Shown in pieces: positions 4,743-63,318 of a stretch of 64,000 nt of DNA. The DNA lies in the NCBI GenBank assembly GCA_050018395.1, contig JBEKAC010000002.1, positions 600 through 64,599 on the forward strand, in the 5' to 3' direction. Made by a program: the position numbers and the translations under genes. The notes under the pieces were generated by a model that saw only the letters and a program-made list of their open reading frames with translations, had not been told where the DNA came from and did no database searches. The DNA is from Dehalococcoidales bacterium (GTDB taxonomy: Bacteria; Chloroflexota; Dehalococcoidia; Dehalococcoidales; RBG-16-60-22). The first letter of the stretch is position 1. Each line of letters begins with the position of its first letter.

Positions 4743-7700
4743 ATGAAAAATTACTTTAAATATCTCGCATCATTACTTAAATCCCAGGAAGCGGGGCAGG
4801 CCCTGATCATCGTGCTGGTTTTTATCCTTTTGGGGACCCTTACCCTCGTGCCCACCCTGGCGCACATGAGCACCGCACTGCAAAGCGGCAGGGTTTATGA
4901 GAACAAGAGCAACGAGTTTTTCACCGCCGACGCCGGCATTGAAAACGGCCTCTGGCGCATTAAATACGATGACCTGGGCCCTACTTATAGTCCTTATGAT
5001 TTCGATACAACCTTTTCCTACCAGACAGACCCCGTCAATAACCGCAATGCGGCGGTCACTGTCCAGAATATCTGGCTCCCCACTAACGTCACGCTGGCCT
5101 CGCTCGGCATTACGCCGGATGCGGCCCAGACCATGGTGGACTCGGAAAAACTGGTGGTCTCGGGTACTTCCGGCGCTATCCCGCACCAGCCCTACCACAT
5201 TGCCATAGCATTTACTCCCGCAACAGGCGATAACCTGACTATAAAATCGGTGGGCATCTGGCTGCCGCAGGACTTTACTTACGCTAATAACTGCACACTG
5301 GAAACCGGCGGACAGTTTACCAAATACTATCCTCATGCGGAGACCGTTACTACCGTACCGGGGGGTACGTCTATCGTCTGGAGCTATACCGCGCCCTACC
5401 CCGTGTTTACCGACTTCCCCAACATGGATACGGAAAACGGGACCCTGTCCTCCTCGATAACTTTTAGCTATAATCCTCCCGCCAGCAACCCCACCAAGCT
5501 GCCACTGGCGGTGGCCTGGGTTACCACCGACCAGGTTTCAGATTCGCCCGTCGCCTGGGACACGGATACGCGCTATTATAAAATCACCGGCGCCAACGGT
5601 AAGACGGAGATTGAGACCTATTCCTCCAAGTCTGAGTTGCGTAAGCTGGGTGACGCCATCGCCGGCTCTTATGTCGCCGTCGGCAACTCGCTGATGATCG
5701 GTGACGTCACCAAGCGTAACCAGTTGCTCTCTTCCAGCGCCTGCGATGTGTCCACGGTTTGGCCTATTCCGGCGGATGCGGATGTCCTTCAAGCCAAACT
5801 CTACTGGGCAGGCTTCCGTCTGGCTGGCAGCATTTTTTCCGATAGCTGCAACGACTTTTCTAAATGGGACAGGAGCAATGATGACGGTAACCAGACGGTG
5901 AAACCGACAGGTGATGGCGCTAATAGCGGCACACGCCATATGCTGCAAATAAGGCTACCGACAGGTGCGGGCGATACAAGCCAGATAGCTTCAGGTACAT
6001 ACGCCTCGCTGGATGAGTGTTCGTGGGATAATGTAGCCTGGAACACGTCGGATTACGAAAAAACCGGAACTACGGCGGGATATGGGCTATTTACCTTTGC
6101 CACACCTGCAATACCCACAGGAGCAACTATCAATAGTGTTAACGTTTACCAGTACACGAGAGATGATACCAGTGGCACTAATTATATACGAGAGTGCATC
6201 AAGGTCAAAGGTACTAGGTATGAGGGAAGCTCTAGCCATAACCCTGGAACGACGGCAACGTTCTATTCTACCTCATGGGCGACTAATCCAAATACCGGCT
6301 TAGCTTGGACAGTCAACGATGTTAATGGCTCAGGGCCAGCCTCTTTACAACAATTCGGCTTCGGCGGTATGACTGATAATGACTGGAACCCCGCCTTCAG
6401 AGTATGTTCCTGCTGGATGACGATAGACTATGATTTAGCCGGCAATTATTACACTTCGGTTGATGAGACGTCGCCTGACTATACGGACGGAGAATATTTC
6501 AATGCGGCTAGCGGCTCAAGCTATCAACATTTTACTTTCCCTTCTTTTAGTATCCCGGCAAGTTGCCCGGTAACCGACCTGAAAATAACCTACTCGGCTT
6601 GTGAATTTGATGCAAACACTTCGGCGGGCACGAATAATGTGAGGGCTGGCATAAAGGTTAACGGGATTCAATACGACACTACAGATTCAGGGAACGACCC
6701 TGGCTATACGCCCGCCACCTACACATATACATATACTGTTAATCCGAATACAAACTTAGCATGGACGGCCGCCGATATCAACGGCACGGGAGCGCATCCA
6801 TTACAACAGTTCGGGTTTGCCACCAGCGATTCCAGCCCGGCGGTGTTGTTCTCGATGGTCTATGCTCAGGTAGATTACACCAGTGACAGTCTCTGGACTA
6901 TTTCCTCCGGCCGGTTCCAGGGTCAGGGCAGTAGCAGTGGCACTACGGACGCCAGGACGCTCACCCTGAAAAACAGCATCGATTTATCCTCCTATGCGCC
7001 CGGAACCATCGCTTTATACTGGGACCAGAGTACCGGCGGCAGCCCGGGAACCACGGACTCCCTGTATTATGCCATCTCCGGTGACGGAGGGAATACCTGG
7101 AGCGCCAATACCGAAGCCTTCCACGGCAGCCCCTCGACCTCGTTCGGGGCCATCGTGCCTACCGCGAACATGACCAGTAACTTTAAATTCCGGCTCTACT
7201 TTAATTACACTTCTAATAGCAAATATGTGTACTTGGATAATATTCAGGTGCTCACCGTGCCGCCGGATACGGATGTTAACTTTTCAATCAACAACCAGCA
7301 GGTCTACTTGGACGGCAGCGGTAACCCCCAGGCGGGTTCACAAAAGCTCACGGCTTCCTCTAGCGCCGTGCTGGTCAACACGAATCTGAGTGCTATCGAC
7401 TCTGGTAAATACGGCTATTTCTATACTTGCCAACGGGACGTCTCCAAGCTGGTGAAGACATATCCAATTGTTCCGGGTGAGCAGCACCATACCGGCAATG
7501 CTTTGTACACGGTCGGCGATGTCACCGCGGATACCGGGCAGTACATCTCTTATGCCGGCTGGTCGCTCATCATCATTTATACCAGCCCGGCCACGGCGGG
7601 GCACTACCTTTATCTTAATGACGTCTTCGCTTACAACCCCGGCAACTCCAACCTGGATTTTGACCATGATGGGACTCCGGGCGGTGATGTTTCGGGCTTT

Positions 7701-9368: not shown

Positions 9369-10544
9369 TTATTTCCCCGCCACCGGTTTGAATACCATCC
9401 GGCTGATGATCAGCCCCACGATGACCACCCCGGCCAAGACCAGCAGTGGCTGCCACGCCTGGCCCAGCGAGCCGCCGCTGCTGATGATCGTTCTATAGGC
9501 GCGGTTGGCGTAGGTATTCAGGGATATTTTGCTCAAAGTGTCCAGCACCGAGCCCTTGGCGATGGTGAAGAAAGTACCGCCCATCATCGTCATGAACATC
9601 GTTACCACCACCCCCACCCAGCTGGCGGCCCGCTCGGTGTGTGATATCGCGGCGACGATCAGTCCTATCGCTCCGGCCGCCGCCGTGAACAGCAACGTTA
9701 TCACCATCGCCGCCAGGAAAGACAGCGGCGTGAACATTTGAAAGACGGCGTAAGCCAGTATGAGTAAAATCAGGGTCTGCACGAACCCCCGCGCGATATT
9801 GGATAAAAACTTGCCCAGGAAAAGCTCGCCGATGCTCAAACGCGTGGTTAGCAGCCTTTCCAGCGTGCCCCGCCGCCTCTCCTCCACGATGGTCGTCGAG
9901 GAAAGAGACAGAGCAAAAAGCACGTACATCGTGACGATGCCCGGCAGGTACTGGTTGACAAAGTCCGGTTTGCCGCCGGTGGTTACCTGGCTGACGCTGA
10001 CCGCGGGTTGCTGGCGTTCCTGCGTCAGATAGTCCTGCACCATGGGTACGATTGCGGCATCGCTGATGCCCGTCCCCGCCAGATTAGCCGCCACCAGGTG
10101 CCGCGCCTGGAACTCCTGGTTGATGTTTTCCGCCTCGCCCCGGATGATGCTGGCGAGTATCTGCCCCTCCGTCCCCCCGTTGCCCCGTTGCTTGAATACG
10201 AGCTCCGCCTGCCCGCCGGCGGTGAGGTTATCGGAGAAGCCGGCCGGTATGAAAAGGACCATCAGCAGGTCGGAGCGGTCGAGCTTGGTGTCCGCTTCCT
10301 TCGCGCTCATCACGTCGACGCTGATGCCGTCGACGCTGTCAATACTTTTAATCAACTGCTGGGAATAGGCGCCTTTGTCCTCGTCCACGATGGAGGCGGT
10401 GGCTTTGAACAGCGTTTGCCCCCCGAAGGCCCCGTACATCAAGGCGAAGGTGAGTATCGGCAGCAAAAGCCCGAACGCCAGGTCGCCTTTGTCCTGGAGG
10501 TACAGCTTGACTTCGTTGAGGGTGATAAATAATGCTCTCTTCAT
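9369..10544 (-). CDS. ABC-2 type transporter permease
   Basis: 391 aa with the same architecture as the downstream paralog. Follows the ATPase gene by 6 nt. Confidence 0.8.
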   Translation of the reverse strand: MKRALFITLNEVKLYLQDKGDLAFGLLLPILTFALMYGAFGGQTLFKATASIVDEDKGAYSQQLIKSIDSVDGISVDVMSAKEADTKLDRSDLLMVLFIPAGFSDNLTAGGQAELVFKQRGNGGTEGQILASIIRGEAENINQEFQARHLVAANLAGTGISDAAIVPMVQDYLTQERQQPAVSVSQVTTGGKPDFVNQYLPGIVTMYVLFALSLSSTTIVEERRRGTLERLLTTRLSIGELFLGKFLSNIARGFVQTLILLILAYAVFQMFTPLSFLAAMVITLLFTAAAGAIGLIVAAISHTERAASWVGVVVTMFMTMMGGTFFTIAKGSVLDTLSKISLNTYANRAYRTIISSGGSLGQAWQPLLVLAGVVIVGLIISRMVFKPVAGK

Positions 10545-28306: not shown

Positions 28307-30436
28307 TTATACCAGATGTAACGCTACCAAAATCATATCGATTAATTTGATGCCGATAAACGGCGCTATCAGCCCGCCGACCCCATAAATAAACAGGTTG
28401 TCACGCAGCAGTCTGGCCGCCCCAACCGGCCGGTACGGCACACCGCGCAAAGCCAGCGGCACGAGCGCCATGATAATCAGGGCATTAAAAATTACCGCCG
28501 AGAGGACGGCGCTTTCCGGCGTGGCCAGGTGCATGATGTTCAATGCCCCGAGGGCAGGGTAAGTGGTGGCAAAAGCCGCCGGGATAATAGCGAAATACTT
28601 GGAAACATCGTTGGCGATACTGAAGGTGGTCAAAGCCCCCCGCGTCATGAGCAGCTGCTTGCCGGTCTCCACGATTTCAATGAGCTTGGTGGGATTGCTG
28701 TCCAGGTCAATCATATTGGCCGCTTCGCGGGCCGCCTGCGTGCCGGTATTCATCGCCACCGCCACGTCGGCCTGCGCTAAAGCCGGGGCGTCGTTAGTGC
28801 CATCGCCCGTCATTGCCACCAGCCGCCCGCCGGCCTGATGCTCGCGTATCAACTTGAGCTTGGCCTCGGGCGTGGCCTGGGCCAGGAAATCATCCACCCC
28901 TGCCTCGGCGGCGATGGCCGTCGCCGTCAGCGGGTTATCCCCGGTAATCATGACGGTTTTGATGCCCATCTTCCGCATTTTGATAAAGCGCTCTTTGATG
29001 CCGCCCTTCACGACGTCTTTAAGGTGAACCACGCCCAGGGCTTCGCCGTTACGCGCCACCACCAGTGGCGTGCCGCCGCTCCGGGCGATACTATCCGAGA
29101 TAGTTTTAAGCTCCGCCGGTACACTATTACCCTGTTCCCGGATGTAAGCGGTAATAGCATCATCCGCGCCTTTACGGATGGCCAGCCCGTCCATATCCAC
29201 CCCGCTCATACGCGTCTGGGCGGAAAAGGGGATAAAACGCATGCCTCCTTGTTTCTCGGCGCCGGCGCTGCCGCGCAGCCCGTACTTTTCCTTCGCCAGT
29301 ATGACGATACTCCGTCCTTCCGGCGTTTCGTCGGCCAGCGATGCCAGCTGCGCCGCCTCGGCTAATTCATGCTCACTAACCCCTCCCACCGGTATGAACT
29401 CCGTGGCCTGGCGGTTACCCAGAGTGATCGTCCCCGTCTTGTCTAAAAGCAATACATCGACGTCTCCGGCTGCCTCCACGGCACGTCCCGAAAGCGCGAT
29501 GACATTACGCCGGATGAGGCGGTCCATCCCGGCGATACCGATAGCCGGCAGCAACCCGCCGATAGTGGTGGGGATAAGACAGACCAGCAGCGCCGCCAGC
29601 ACCGTAATCGTGATCGGCGTACCCAGGTGATTCACGTTGACGCTGTAGATGGAAAACGGCAGCAGCGTCATACAAACGACGAGAAAGACAATGGTAAACG
29701 CCGCCAGCAGGATATTGAGGGCGATTTCATTGGGAGTCTTCTGGCGTTTGGCGCCTTCCACCAGGCTAATCATGCGGTCGAGGAAACCCTCGCCGGGGTT
29801 AGCGGTCACACGGACTATCAGCCAGTCGGACAGAATACGCGTCCCGCCGGTAACGGCGCTGCGGTCGCCGCCGGACTCACGGATGACGGGGGCGCTCTCG
29901 CCGGTGACGGCGCTCTCGTTCACCGAAGCGATACCTTCAATCACCTCGCCATCGGTGGGAATAATATCACCGGCCTCGACGATGAAGACATCGTTCTGCC
30001 GTAACTCGCTGGAAGAAACCGACTCGTATTCAGCCCCGTGTTTCGGCTGTGTAAGCCGCTTGGCCTGAGTTTCCTGGCGTGTCCGGCGCAGTGCCGCCGC
30101 CTGTGCTTTACCGCGACCCTCCGCCAGCGCCTCGGAGAAATTGGCGAAGAGCACGCACAGCCAGAGCCACAATGTCACCCCGCCGACAAAGGCAGCCCGT
30201 ACCTCGCCGTGCCCGAACAGCGCCTGAAGCCATAAGACTGTGGTCAGGACGCTGCCCACTTCGGTGACGAACATGACCGGATTACGCAGCATCCAGCGCG
30301 GGTTAAGTTTGAAAAAAGCGTCGGCAATGGCCCGGCGGTACAGCGGCTGTCCGGGGCGCGACGGTTTCTTCGAAGGCGGTAAAGCCGTTCCTCCGGCTGC
30401 CCGGGGCTTTATTTCCGGTTGCATGTCTTCTGTCAT
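28307..30436 (-). CDS. kdpB: K+-transporting P-type ATPase subunit B
   Basis: DKTGTIT phosphorylation motif, [18 protein letters not shown]. Confidence 0.95.
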
Positions 30437-34125: not shown

Positions 34126-34806
34126 TCAGGCGGCCTGCCCCACCAGTCGACCTACATCACCCTTGGCAGGCGCCGCAGGCTTTATTTTTAATCCTGCGCT
34201 TTCCGGGGAGGGTTTCACCAGCGGCTCCGGCCAGAATGTGGTGTCCAGTTGCCGGACGGACGGGGGGTGGGCGAAACGGAACCGCGCCATCAGCTCGTTG
34301 TGAGTAAGAGATATAGCCACCGGTTGCGGCATCACCGGTTCAGTCATCACTGTTTTGATTATCACCGGTTCCGGCGGTCTTTCCTCCGGTAATTTTACAG
34401 TCTCTTTGATTTCTTCAGCGGCAGTTTTCACGGGCGTGACATAGCAAATCATCCGCGTCATTTCCAGCTCATCCGGGTCGTAGCCCGGCCGGTCTCCGGC
34501 GAAGCCTTGCTGCAAGACCTCGATTTCATCCATGTCCGCGACGCGGTAGAGCTTCCACCCCTCCGTTTTCCCCATGTCGCTGAAACCCGCGGTCTGGTAG
34601 CAGATAAGCGATTCGTTTTTCGCTTCGCCTTTCATCACGATGCCCAGGCAGTAGGGCTCCACGGTGCGGTAGCCGCCGTGGTAATGAAACCCGATGGTCT
34701 TCATCTGCTTGATGGCGCCGCAGAGTACCCAGCGTTTGTATTCGCGGTTCATGCCGACATTTAGTATTTGCTTTAGTTTAGGCACGCTGCAATCTCGCCT
34801 TTCCAA
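34126..34806 (-). CDS. Hypothetical protein with WYL-like N-terminal beta-barrel pattern
   Basis: HYHGGYRTVEPYCLGIV...EGWKLYRVADMDEIEVL resembles the WYL/Sm-like pattern. The likely start is MNREYKRW at 34752. The C-terminus is Pro-rich and runs into the repeat region. Confidence 0.4.
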   Translation of the reverse strand: MERRDCSVPKLKQILNVGMNREYKRWVLCGAIKQMKTIGFHYHGGYRTVEPYCLGIVMKGEAKNESLICYQTAGFSDMGKTEGWKLYRVADMDEIEVLQQGFAGDRPGYDPDELEMTRMICYVTPVKTAAEEIKETVKLPEERPPEPVIIKTVMTEPVMPQPVAISLTHNELMARFRFAHPPSVRQLDTTFWPEPLVKPSPESAGLKIKPAAPAKGDVGRLVGQAA

Positions 34807-34928: not shown

Positions 34929-35978
34929 TTAGCGGACCCTGATCCGGCCCCTGTTTTCCGCCGTCACCTTCCCGATGATGGCGGCCGCGGAGACGCCCTG
35001 TTCGTGCAGCTTCTTCAGCAGCCGGGCAGCCCTGGCTTTGGGTACGGCGATGAGCAGGCCGCCGGAGGTCTGCGGGTCGTAGAGAATATCCTTCAAATAT
35101 TTAGGAACACTTTTATTCATGTCCACCATGTGCTTGCGGAAGTCCCGGTTGCGCCCCAGCCCACCGGCCACCATGCCCGCCTCGTAATATTCCTTCGCCT
35201 CGGGGAAAAGGGGGACGGCGGCGGCATCTATTTCCATGCCCACGGCCGTACCCTCGACCATCTCGCAGGCGTGCCCCAGCAGCCCGAAACCGGTAATGTC
35301 CTTGCAGGCGTTAACGCCCACCTCCAGCATGATTTGGGAAGCCGTGCGGTTGAGCGCGGTCATGGAGGCAGTCACCCTAGCGATGGCCTCTTTACCGGCG
35401 GCGCCTCGCTTGATGGCGGTGCTGATGATGCCGGTGCCCAGCGGTTTCGTTAAAATAAGGCTGTCTCCGGGACGGGCGGTATTATTGTGGACAACCTTGT
35501 CCGGCCGGATGGTGCCGGTGACGGCCAGCCCGTACTTTATCTCCGGGTCGTCCACGGTGTGCCCGCCCAGCAGTATCACCCCGGCCTCGTGCATTTTATC
35601 CAGGCCGCCTTTAAGGACTTTTCTCAAGATGGCAAAGTCCAGCGTATCTTTGGGGAAGCAGACGATGTTGAGCGCCGTCAGGGGCTTACCGCCCATGGCG
35701 TAAACGTCACTTAAAGCGTTGGCCACAGCGATACGGCCGAAGTCGTAAGGGTCATCGACGACGGGCGTGAAAAAATCGACTGTCTGGACGAGGGCGAGGT
35801 CGTCTGTAATTTTAAAGACGCCGGCATCCTCCGCCCTTTCCATCCCCGCGATGATATCGGGGTGGGTCTGGAAGGGCAGCCCGGCCAGCGCTTTGGCGAG
35901 GTCCGCCGGACCTATCTTACAAGCTCAACCCGCGCCGTGGACGGTCTCGGTCAACCGCAGCTTCTTTTCTTTGGACAC
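34929..35978 (-). CDS. selD: Selenide, water dikinase SelD with in-frame UGA (selenocysteine) at codon 18
   Basis: The track ORF starts at 35843, but the same frame continues upstream: GTG(35978) SKEKKLRLTETVHGAG-TGA(35927..35925)-ACKIGPADL. This aligns with E. coli SelD RLTQYSHGAGCGCKISP, placing UGA at the Cys17 position. AAGAGG lies 8 nt upstream of the GTG. Confidence 0.9.
35899..35913 (-). promoter_or_regulatory. Candidate bacterial SECIS hairpin
   Basis: AGGUCC-GGC-GGACCU, a perfect 6-bp stem beginning 11 nt after the UGA. Confidence 0.5.
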
Positions 35979-36010
35979 GTTACTTACCTCTTGAGGGTAT
36001 TGTACTATAT

Positions 36011-36066
36011 AAAATCAAAAGTCAAAAATCAAATCTCAAAAACACAAAGTGAAAACGTAAATCTTG
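36011..36066. repeat. Degenerate heptamer tandem repeat, 8 units (AAAATCA AAAGTCA AAAATCA AATCTCA AAAACAC AAAGTGA AAACGTA AATCTTG)
   Basis: Read directly. An inverted partner TGTGTTTTTGATTTTTG lies at about 36094..36110. Confidence 0.9.
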
Positions 36067-36174
36067 GTCAAAATCATTTTTCAATTTTTTATCTGTGTTT
36101 TTGATTTTTGTGCCGATTCCTTAAGATCATCCGGCATCCCGCATGCCATCGGGAAGATTTGAGATTTTATTTTT

Positions 36175-36510
36175 CTAAAGGCAAACCATCTCCGTGCTTA
36201 GCATCGTTTGGATGGACTTGGCCATATTGGTCGCCTTGCCTACTTTTATCTTACCCGTCAGCTCGAAAAAGTCCAGGCATGTGGCGCAGGCCAGGATTTC
36301 CACGCCCTGCTGCTCCAGCTTTTTCAGGTGCGCCAGCGCCCACGAGCCTTCCGCCACCAGCTTCACGCCGGTGTTCCAGAACACCAGCGCCGCCGGTTTT
36401 TCCTTGCTTTCACTCAACGTCCCTAAAAATTTGGACATCAAAAGCGTCCCGAGCTCGTCATTGCCCCTGCCCAGCGTTTCCGATTGTATCAACAACGTTT
36501 TCGATGGCAT
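36175..36510 (-). CDS. YedF-like DsrE-fold selenium-metabolism protein (lacks the TusA-like N-domain)
   Basis: Pattern SETLGRGNDELGTLLMSKF...ALVFWNTGVKL...GVEILACATCLDFF...VGKATNM matches the recalled YedF C-terminal domain. GGAGGG lies 9 nt upstream of ATG 36510. Confidence 0.7.
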   Translation of the reverse strand: MPSKTLLIQSETLGRGNDELGTLLMSKFLGTLSESKEKPAALVFWNTGVKLVAEGSWALAHLKKLEQQGVEILACATCLDFFELTGKIKVGKATNMAKSIQTMLSTEMVCL

Positions 36511-36524
36511 ATCGCGTCCCTCCA

Positions 36525-37280
36525 TCAATTTCTGATTTTACCGGATTTGGCCAATAGCGCGGCGCCCAGCGCGCCGACGGTCTGCGGCGATTCCGGAACG
36601 ATCAGTTTTTGCTCCATTTTTTGTTCCAGTAATTTAACCAGACAACGGTTATAAGCACCGCCGCCGGCGAAGATTATCTCCCCTTTGATGCCGACCCTCC
36701 TCACCATGGTCTCGATGCGCGTGGCGATAGCCTCATGCAGGGCCAGCGCAATCGTGCTGATTTCTTCCCCTTTGGCGATAAGTGAAACCACTTCCGATTC
36801 CGCGAAGACCGTGCACAGACTGTTGATGTGGATAACGCCGGAAGCGCTTAAAGCCAGGGCGCCTATTTCGGAAATCGGCACCTCCAGCGTCTGGGCCATG
36901 ATTTCCAGGAATTTGCCCGTCCCGGCGGCGCAGCGGTCGTTCATCTCGAACTTCTGGACTTCACCCTTTTCCGATAGCTGGATGACCTTGCAGTCCTGCC
37001 CCCCGATATCGATAACGTCGCGGCACCCGGGATACAGATAGCGGGCACCGACGGCAAAGGCTTTTATCTCCGAGACAACCTCCCCGCCTGCGGCGGGCGC
37101 CACCAGGTGACGGCCGTAGCCGGTCAGCACCAGCCCGGCATAGTTTTTACCCGCCAGCAGCTCCTGGCAACGCCGCAGCGGATTTACGCCCGCGGGTATG
37201 ACCACCGCATCCCGGACGGCGGTATCCAGGGTAACCAGCTTGATGGTGCGGGAGCCTACGTCCAGTCCGGCATAAATCAA
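36525..37280 (-). CDS. BcrAD/BadFG/HgdC-type ATPase (activase of 2-hydroxyacyl-CoA dehydratase-like enzymes)
   Basis: MIYAGLDVGSRTIK, DIGGQDCK, RCAAGTG (bridging-cluster Cys). Overlaps both neighbours by 1-4 nt. Confidence 0.85.
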   Translation of the reverse strand: MIYAGLDVGSRTIKLVTLDTAVRDAVVIPAGVNPLRRCQELLAGKNYAGLVLTGYGRHLVAPAAGGEVVSEIKAFAVGARYLYPGCRDVIDIGGQDCKVIQLSEKGEVQKFEMNDRCAAGTGKFLEIMAQTLEVPISEIGALALSASGVIHINSLCTVFAESEVVSLIAKGEEISTIALALHEAIATRIETMVRRVGIKGEIIFAGGGAYNRCLVKLLEQKMEQKLIVPESPQTVGALGAALLAKSGKIRN

Positions 37281-61431: not shown

Positions 61432-63318
61432 ATGATCGATAAAGTTGAAATCAGGGTTAAAGCAGGGGACGGCGGGAGGGGGGCGGTCAGCTTCCGGCGG
61501 GAGATGTACGTGCCTTTCGGGGGGCCGGACGGCGGTGACGGAGGCAAGGGAGGCGATGTCGTTATCCGTGTGGACAAGTCCACCGATAATCTGCGTTTTT
61601 ACGTTAAGAACCGGCTGTACCAGGCGGAGAGAGGGTTGGGCGGCGGCGCTAAAAAAAAGCACGGACATGACGGCGCGGACCTTATCCTCAAGGTGCCGGC
61701 CGGCACGCTGGTCACTTCGGTAGATGAAAACGGTGCAAAGATATTGCTGGCGGACCTCAACGTTGCCGGCGAACAGATTATCGTCGCCGCGGGGGGTAAA
61801 GGCGGCGGGGGCAACGTCCATTACCGGTCCTCGGTCAACCAGGCGCCCCGCATCGCGCAAAAGGGTGAGACCGGCGAGGAAAGGGCCATTAGCCTGGAAA
61901 TGCGTCTTATCGCCGACGTGGGTATCATCGGTTATCCTAATGCCGGAAAATCCACCCTGCTGGCCGCGGCTTCCGCGGCCCGGCCTAAGGTGGCGGACTA
62001 CCCCTTCACCACCCTCGAGCCGGTGCTGGGCGTCGTCGCACAGGGGCAGGAAAGCTTTGTCCTGGCGGAAATCCCCGGGCTCATCGAGGGCGCGCACCTG
62101 GGCAAGGGACTCGGCATCGACTTTTTGCGCCATGCCATGCGCACCAAAATTTTGCTCCACCTCCTTAGCGGGGATGCTCCTTCGCCTTTGGACGACATGA
62201 TTAAGGTTAACAACGAGTTGGCGGCCTTTGATGTTTCACTGGCGCAGCGGCCGCAAATCGTCGCCGTGAATAAAATCGACCTCCCTGCGGTGCAGGAAAA
62301 GATGGCAGGCATTAAAGCAGATCTAGCCGCCGCCGGCGTTAAGGCGCACTTCATTTCCGCCGCCACCGGGCAGGGCGTTAGAGAACTGATGGCGGCGGTC
62401 TTCGAGACTCTAAAAAGGGAAACGGTTGCCTCCCCGCCCGCGGAACCGGGTGAAAAGGTCTTTCGGCCCCAGCCCCGCCAGCCTCGCATTAAGGTCGCCC
62501 GGGAAGGCGATGGTTTTGTTATCGATGCCCCCGGGCTGGACCGGATTATCGCTGGCCGGGGCGTCACCACCGGCGAACTGCGCTGGCAGCTGAATTTCCA
62601 GCTGGAGAAAATGGGCATCAACAAGGCCCTTCAGAAAGCGGGCGTCAACCGGGGGGACAAGATCCGCTGCGGCGACCTTACCTGGGAATGGTCCTTCCCC
62701 GGTGAAGAGGGGCGGAAAATAGGCGTGTTCGGCGGGACCTTCGACCCCGTCCATCTCGGGCACCTGATGATAGCGGAAGAGGCGAAAACCGCGCTGGACA
62801 TGGCGGAGGTCGTCCTGGTGCCGGCCGGCCAGCCGATGTCCCGCCGCGATGAAAACGTTACCCCCGCCCGCCATCGTCTGGAGATGCTCCGCCTGGCCAT
62901 CGAAGGCAAACCGGAGCTTAAAATATCGGAAATGGAAATCGAACGCAAGGGCCCCTCTTACACGGTGGATACCATCGCGGGCATGAAAAAGCTCTATGCC
63001 CGCGGCGACGAGCTTTATTTTATCCTGGGCTGGGACAGCCTGGAGCAGCTGCCGGACTGGCATGAACCCTCCCGGCTGGTCAATAGCTGTTACTTGGTGG
63101 CCGTACCGCGCCCGGGCTGGAAACGCCCCAATATAAAAGCGCTGGAGGGTATACTGCCGGGCATTACGCAGAAGGTGATATGGCTGGATAAACCCCGGGT
63201 GGACATCGGCGCCACCGCTATCCGGGAACTGGCAGCCAGAGGAGAGCCCATCGACCACCTTGTCCCCAAAACAGTGGCCGAATATATCAGGAAGAACAAG
63301 CTATATATAAACCAATAG
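61432..63318 (+). CDS. obg: Obg GTPase fused in frame to nicotinate-nucleotide adenylyltransferase (NadD)
   Basis: Obg fold MIDKVEIRVKAGDGGRGAVSFRRE, G domain GYPNAGKST/NKIDL, OCT-like domain (GDKIRCGDLTWEW). After an 8-residue linker comes NadD: IGVFGGTFDPVHLGH...SYTVDT...ISATAIR-like. Confidence 0.85.
   Translation: MIDKVEIRVKAGDGGRGAVSFRREMYVPFGGPDGGDGGKGGDVVIRVDKSTDNLRFYVKNRLYQAERGLGGGAKKKHGHDGADLILKVPAGTLVTSVDENGAKILLADLNVAGEQIIVAAGGKGGGGNVHYRSSVNQAPRIAQKGETGEERAISLEMRLIADVGIIGYPNAGKSTLLAAASAARPKVADYPFTTLEPVLGVVAQGQESFVLAEIPGLIEGAHLGKGLGIDFLRHAMRTKILLHLLSGDAPSPLDDMIKVNNELAAFDVSLAQRPQIVAVNKIDLPAVQEKMAGIKADLAAAGVKAHFISAATGQGVRELMAAVFETLKRETVASPPAEPGEKVFRPQPRQPRIKVAREGDGFVIDAPGLDRIIAGRGVTTGELRWQLNFQLEKMGINKALQKAGVNRGDKIRCGDLTWEWSFPGEEGRKIGVFGGTFDPVHLGHLMIAEEAKTALDMAEVVLVPAGQPMSRRDENVTPARHRLEMLRLAIEGKPELKISEMEIERKGPSYTVDTIAGMKKLYARGDELYFILGWDSLEQLPDWHEPSRLVNSCYLVAVPRPGWKRPNIKALEGILPGITQKVIWLDKPRVDIGATAIRELAARGEPIDHLVPKTVAEYIRKNKLYINQ

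Follow-up and report, generated by a model that had tools for sequence, protein, structure and literature searches.

A predicted selenocysteine-containing selenophosphate synthetase with an in-frame UGA codon, truncated by gene calling, in a Dehalococcoidales genome

Reading frame of selD and the start of translation

The gene for selenophosphate synthetase (SelD; selenide, water dikinase) on the minus strand of a 64,000-nucleotide stretch of DNA from a Dehalococcoidales bacterium (hereafter, the window) raises the question of where its protein begins and of how an in-frame TGA codon near its 5' end is read. Standard ORF calling gives an ORF at 34929..35843 that starts at an ATG (35841..35843, minus strand), the codon for what would be residue 46 of a longer protein (Met-46), and the initial annotation had noted the same start in its ORF track. 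It proposed instead that the gene begins at a GTG at 35978 and passes through a TGA at 35927..35925 that encodes selenocysteine (Sec), and on the minus strand both codons are read exactly so. The full-length coding sequence (34929..35978) comprises 349 codons and a TAA stop (34931..34929). Its N-terminal part consists of 17 sense codons (VSKEKKLRLTETVHGAG), the TGA at codon 18 (35925..35927), and then ACKIGPADLAKAL, from where the frame is open to the TAA.

We fixed the start by reading the frame directly back to the upstream in-frame stop, a TGA at 36017..36015; the GTG (35976..35978) is the earliest start available past that stop, and a 361-codon open frame containing one TGA, recovered in the search of the genome, agrees with it. 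The ribosome-binding site AAGAGG, which had been placed 8 nucleotides (nt) ahead of the GTG, is read directly in the sequence at 35987..35992 on the minus strand with a spacer of that length. Relatives carry an ATG at the equivalent of the GTG, e.g., MSKEKKLRLTETV in loci L022 and L025 and MSEKKKLRLTETV in locus L103, where the AAGAGG site is also arranged as in the window. ORF calling with TGA translated as U was uninformative as a guide to the start, since it runs through three more upstream TGAs to give 406 aa.

Identity of the protein and its catalytic loop

The 349-aa read-through translation scores far above the cut-offs of the SelD families, with 397 bits against TIGR00476 (cut-off, 125; residues 8 to 316) and 362 bits against NF002098 (cut-off, 299; residues 4 to 348), and it contains the AIR-synthase-related domains PF00586 (AIRS; residues 50 to 156) and PF02769 (AIRS_C; residues 169 to 348). 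The SelD profile matches thus begin at residues 4 to 8, well ahead of Met-46. Alignment with Escherichia coli SelD (PDB code 3u0o) covers residues 4 to 346 (E = 9.5e-78) and sets U18 opposite Cys17, with HGAG-U-ACKIGP over HGAG-C-GCKISP and the next Lys (E. coli Lys20) conserved. In the alignment with the Aquifex aeolicus SelD chain (PDB code 2yye), which spans residues 8 to 342 (E = 5.6e-71), U18 falls at the corresponding Cys of the deposited chain. The two alignments thereby bear out the earlier placement of the UGA exactly at the Cys17/Sec position of the glycine-rich loop. A protein starting at Met-46 lacks this catalytic loop, with its Sec/Cys and Lys. The genome holds a single selD above the cut-off, which carries the one TGA; the other matches are weaker members of the AIRS family, HypE among them, and the rest fall well short of the SelD cut-off. 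Taken with the evidence below, the family assignment and the aligned loop make it very probable that the window gene encodes a genuine Sec-containing selenophosphate synthetase.

The window SelD shares with the E. coli enzyme the HGAG-C/U-xCK-I-xP loop, the AIRS fold, and, as predicted from these, the same reaction. The E. coli protein has a catalytic Cys (TGY) and needs no SECIS, whereas the window gene has UGA and so needs its own pathway for the synthesis of SelD. With the Sec-containing SelDs of other bacteria, such as A. aeolicus (PDB codes 2yye and 2zod) and Acetomicrobium mobile (BSepDB), it has in common Sec in an N-terminal G-U-A-x-K loop and a coding-region hairpin after the UGA. No functional difference from these known proteins was detected; the lineage is that of the Dehalococcoidia-type Chloroflexota.

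Conservation of the UGA codon and the Cys-containing forms

Conservation was assessed in 80 homologous loci from contigs chosen as one genome per species, of which 78 were informative and 2 were lost at contig ends. TGA was verified at the position of codon 18 in 64 of these 78, and 12 more have an in-frame stop there, giving a total of 76 from several phyla. Two of the 80 loci, from Sporosarcina and from a metagenome-assembled genome (MAG) of the Anaerohalosphaeraceae, have Cys at this codon; Cys occupies the equivalent of U18 in E. coli SelD, in the homologs P0004 to P0006, and in loci L056 and L097. Closer to the window, selD was recovered in 46 of 60 relatives from the same genus, family, and order, and every N-terminally complete match has exactly one TGA. 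Given this conservation, an assembly error at the TGA is very unlikely. The upstream peptide RLTETVHGAG and the position of the start are likewise conserved. The initial annotation had allowed that close homologs might start at the equivalent of Met-46 with the preceding 45 codons unconserved; these codons turn out to be conserved in the relatives.

Three metagenomic homologs of 349 aa (P0004 to P0006) have Cys at the position of U18, and L103, the only one of them represented by DNA, encodes it with TGT. These Cys-containing Dehalococcoidia proteins are 76% identical to the window SelD across all 349 residues, and locus L103 shares the gene neighborhood of the window (HGD-D, BcrAD activase, a yedF-like ORF, selD, and a 226-aa ORF). 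In the selD tree, all three fall in a single clade (100/100 support) nested far inside the Sec-containing forms. One reversion of Sec to Cys is the simplest reading of this position, and such reversion has already been documented in SelD (PMC1794560). In the same tree, the Dehalococcoidia-type clade is placed together with Syntrophales and with two MAGs of Actinomycetota, apart from the other Chloroflexota SelDs (L058, L068, L070, L072, and L095). This placement may reflect horizontal transfer of selD between anaerobes.

A hairpin downstream of the UGA

The perfect 6-bp hairpin that the initial annotation described 11 nt after the UGA, AGGUCC-GGC-GGACCU, is indeed present at 35899..35913 on the minus strand, with a 3-nt GGC loop that begins 17 nt from the UGA. 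We compared it with the published consensus model of the bacterial SECIS (PMC13188914, Fig. 2), which specifies a loop of 3 to 9 nt with at least one G in its first two positions, an upper stem of 4 to 16 bp, a UGA-to-loop distance of 16 to 37 nt, and a minimum free energy (MFE) no higher than -7.5 kcal/mol. The hairpin conforms to this model in its loop (3 nt), stem (6 bp), G (GGC), and spacing (17 nt), and its energy, -7.4 kcal/mol in isolation and -7.9 kcal/mol in a 50-nt context, is borderline relative to the cut-off. The commoner hairpin in close relatives, AGGUC-CGGGY-GACCU, has 5 bp, a 5-nt loop, and an energy of -4.6 to -4.9 kcal/mol.

Tests of structure gave mixed results. Folding of the region around the UGA (35870..35935) as a single sequence placed the hairpin within the MFE structure, with an unremarkable z-score of +0.82 (not significant). 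Rfam searches of the window at gathering thresholds returned tRNA-Pro as the only match and no SECIS. RNAalifold, applied to the 27-sequence clade of Dehalococcoidia-type Sec-containing genes, recovered the same stem, which is invariant and shows no covariation, along with outer pairs of uncertain value. The stability test by synonymous randomization was not significant in the window's own clade: for the window, the fraction of randomizations at or below the native energy was 0.18, and 18% of the randomizations of its peptide yielded an equally good bSECIS-type hairpin. At the equivalent position, Bacillota, Desulfobulbales, Actinomycetota, and other Chloroflexota have different hairpins with G-first loops, and in these clades the hairpins are significantly more stable than the synonymous randomizations.

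The codon alignment of the 27 Dehalococcoidia-type Sec-containing selD genes revealed a marked synonymous constraint on the stem. Counting from the UGA, codon +4 is ATA in 24 of 26 genes, +5 is GGT, +6 is CCG, and +8 is GAC in all 27, and CTC stands at +9 in 24 of 27, whereas codon +7, in the loop, is variable. Of 198 windows in the gene, the one made up of codons +4, +5, +6, +8, and +9 shows the strongest synonymous constraint (rank 1), and none of 100,000 random draws was as low. The hairpin codons are minor ones in this genome (ATA, GGT, and CTC make up 17%, 15%, and 19% of their respective families), so codon bias does not explain the constraint. It also extends toward the UGA: codons +1 to +3 are constrained, the eight windows of lowest entropy in selD all lie around the UGA, and the Gly codon at -1 (35928..35930, minus strand) is GGT in 27 of 27 members of the clade versus 15% of Gly codons genome-wide, which points to constraint on the sequence context 5' of the codon decoded as Sec. 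In L103, where TGT replaces TGA, the Ile codon at +4 is ATT rather than the stem-closing ATA, and the remainder of the hairpin is kept; because the Cys form retains most of the hairpin, its conservation could stem in part from the GPGDL peptide.

On balance, the hairpin is likely to be the core of a SECIS. The initial proposal to this effect stands as regards loop, stem, G, spacing, and synonymous constraint; the energy is borderline, the stem shows no covariation, and the hairpin is no more stable than synonymous randomizations of its peptide. Further, the canonical SelD SECIS of A. mobile (Synergistota) in BSepDB contains the identical core, GGUCC-GGC-GGACC (PMC13326102).

Sec could also be inserted with the help of a larger or partly sequence-specific SECIS spanning roughly codons -1 to +9, or through an alternative GGCG/CGCC pairing or more distal pairings. 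Such an arrangement would accommodate the synonymous constraint that runs from the GGT at codon -1 to codon +9, where the lowest-entropy windows lie, as well as the 5-bp hairpin of the relatives, with an energy that falls short of the consensus requirement, the nonsignificant stability test in the clade, and the uncertain outer pairs from RNAalifold. We consider it rather improbable, as L022 and L025 disrupt the GGCG/CGCC pairing but keep the main stem intact, the invariant codons are those of the stem and not loop codon +7, and a core identical to ours is annotated as the SECIS in the Synergistota protein. Moreover, the 11-nt spacing of the hairpin in the window is reportedly that of the minimal SECIS of E. 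coli. While thus retaining the 6-bp hairpin as the preferred SECIS core, we note that most members of the clade have a stem of 5 bp (about -4.9 kcal/mol, which misses the energy threshold) and that codons -1 to +9 are almost frozen. On this basis, we would speculate, with no great confidence, that the SECIS here is unusually minimal and largely defined by sequence and that a short YedF-like gene upstream (see below) is a possible dedicated selenium donor for a self-dependent Sec-containing SelD. If true, the stability of the hairpin would count for less in recognition by SelB in this lineage than would sequence and position.

The Sec-decoding machinery

The initial annotation implied that the organism has a working Sec-decoding system and pointed to a lack of selA, selB, and selC as evidence to the contrary. 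All three are present on one contig (C16) of the 2.51-Mb assembly, consistent with such a system: selA (554 bits), selB (347 bits), and tRNA-Sec (74 bits with Rfam) score above their cut-offs, and ARAGORN likewise reports a tRNA-SeC with the anticodon tca (UCA) on this contig. The selB match covers profile positions 2 to 579 of 581, which indicates that the C-terminal part is present. No selU was found in the genome, which argues that selenophosphate serves here mainly for Sec synthesis. The tRNA-Sec gene directly follows hypD, hypE, and a hydrogenase maturation protease (contig C16, 31320..34272; locus L104, 1320..4273), the last of which has a subthreshold match to the NiFeSe-hydrogenase maturation protease.

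We infer that Sec is actually inserted at codon 18, that SelB binds the hairpin, and that SelD takes part in a feedback loop, along the following lines. Translation would begin at the GTG at 35978, and SelB, seated on the coding-region hairpin, would bring Sec-tRNA(Sec) to UGA-18 for decoding. The product would be a 349-aa enzyme with the loop HGAG-U-AC-K, in which Sec takes the place of E. coli Cys17 and is followed by the conserved Lys. SelD would make selenophosphate, which SelA would use in converting Ser-tRNA(Sec) to Sec-tRNA(Sec); the Sec-containing SelD would thus belong to the Sec pathway and at the same time be made by it. This self-dependence might be bridged by inherited enzyme or by low-level misreading.

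Further selenoprotein genes in the genome

The expectation that other UGA-split ORFs would be found in the genome was borne out by a de novo scan that sought TGA codons lying in frame, flanked on either side by sequence of coding potential and accompanied by a bSECIS-like hairpin; it recovered selD and four further selenoprotein genes. Only a handful of in-frame TGAs were of coding quality, and these are located at Cys-equivalent positions of known selenoprotein families. A first, stricter scan missed selD itself (-7.4 versus the cut-off of -7.5 kcal/mol), and most of its 32 matches were antisense shadow frames.

The four genes are the following. FdhA (987 aa; contig C1, UGA at 77705, minus strand) has Sec at residue 361 (CARLUHAPT), matches TIGR01591 with 834 bits (cut-off, 666), and has a strong hairpin, GGUGGCC-GGUCU-GGCCACU. 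A UGSC-family fusion protein of 565 aa (contig C1, UGA at 6035, plus strand) contains GGUDGC and matches PF24696 with 69 bits (cut-off, 25). An AhpC/TSA redoxin of 160 aa (contig C47, UGA at 9451, plus strand) contains FFUPHC. The fourth is a 162-aa protein with FGUPITTG (contig C17, UGA at 29916, minus strand) that is weakly related to PF01035, the MGMT DNA-binding domain; TGA is found in 10 of its 13 full-length relatives and TGC (Cys) in two, L106 and L110 (among loci L105 to L110). The FdhA and UGSC families and Prx-type redoxins are published selenoprotein families, and PF01035 is likewise already listed as one (PMC13188914). As observations on individual genes, standard calling would split fdhA into two ORFs, and in the Sec-containing forms of the PF01035-type protein an Arg codon (CGN) puts a G into the loop of the downstream hairpin, where the Cys-containing forms have Lys (AAA).

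Other candidates were set aside. In a GalU-like gene (contig C4, TGA at 62048, plus strand, codon 149), the frame decays after about 206 aa and the match to TIGR01099 is below the cut-off (242 versus 327 bits); this is probably a pseudogene or degraded gene or an assembly error and no selenoprotein. CobT-like and deacetylase-like candidates proved to be spurious 5' extensions. BSepDB records 46 to 49 selenoproteins in some Dehalococcoidia (PMC13326102); our scan is conservative, and the genome may hold more.

These genome-wide data bear on whether the UGA of selD might be read through by means other than Sec, with a near-cognate tRNA inserting Trp or Cys or with UGA reassigned throughout the genome. 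Low-level read-through of UGA does occur in bacteria, and the residue inserted at codon 18 is predicted here from the sequence. Nevertheless, TGA is an ordinary stop that terminates 295 of 1,654 long ORFs (18%), which excludes genome-wide reassignment; the coding-quality in-frame TGAs are few and lie where known selenoprotein families have Cys or its equivalent; and the Sec machinery is complete. Read-through without Sec is thus very unlikely, and insertion of Sec is the reading that we adopt.

Truncated database entries and the Met-46 start

The database copy of the window SelD (P0002) is a 304-aa truncation, as from Met-46, and its relatives are mostly stored as proteins of 304, 316, 320, or 328 aa because the same TGA was taken as a stop. 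That Met-46 (35843) is the true start, or that the gene is a 5'-truncated pseudogene, with the upstream frame a decaying remnant behind a true stop, agrees with standard ORF calling and with the 304 to 328 aa of most database entries of relatives but is scarcely credible, given that the protein would miss the catalytic glycine-rich loop with its Sec/Cys and Lys, that more than 70 genomes conserve the protein sequence of the 45 upstream codons together with the start position and ribosome-binding site, that this is the sole selD of a genome retaining selA, selB, selC, and other selenoprotein genes, and that the one TGA accounts for all of the truncated entries.

The product to be recorded under the Sec reading is therefore a 349-aa selenoprotein in place of the 304-aa fragment, and most relatives are misrecorded likewise. 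Among prokaryotic selenoprotein families, SelD ranks second in size, and it is described as "frequently misannotated" (PMC13188914 and PMC13326102). As Sec-containing SelD, its SECIS, its misannotation, and the richness of Dehalococcoidia in selenoproteins have all been published (PMC1794560, PMC13188914, and PMC13326102), the present case is a correction of annotation and nothing biologically new in kind. Left as it is, the truncated entry would falsely point to a nonfunctional selenium pathway; once the Sec trait is recognized, it flags further miscalled genes in the genome, namely, those for FdhA, the UGSC-family protein, the redoxin, and the PF01035 protein.

Gene neighborhood of selD

Directly upstream of selD on the same strand lies a gene for a YedF-like selenium metabolism protein of 117 aa (36175..36528, minus strand; TIGR03527, 129 bits with a cut-off of 110). 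The match covers profile positions 86 to 191 of 194, corresponding to the DsrE-like C-terminal half; the protein lacks the N-terminal, SirA/TusA-like domain. A YedF-like match occurs in 24 of 81 loci, including those of Desulfobulbales; where locus coordinates were examined, it falls within a few hundred bases of selD on the upstream side. The encoded protein may be a dedicated selenium-handling partner. Just downstream of selD, a 226-aa ORF (34126..34806, minus strand), for which no Pfam or NCBIfam match was found, is conserved after selD in 12 loci (40 to 47% identity), among them the Cys-containing L103.

Between the YedF-like gene and selD, a promoter-like site, TTGATT-17-TATAGT, is present at 36004..36032 on the minus strand; the evidence for it is weak, the promoter consensus scan having found 3 sites versus 1.2 expected by chance. 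The AT-rich intergenic region (36000..36175) further contains several repeats of the TTTTGA/GATTTT type (...tttgagatttgatttttgacttttgatttta...) that overlap the promoter-like site at 36032..36004 and could represent an array of regulator-binding sites.
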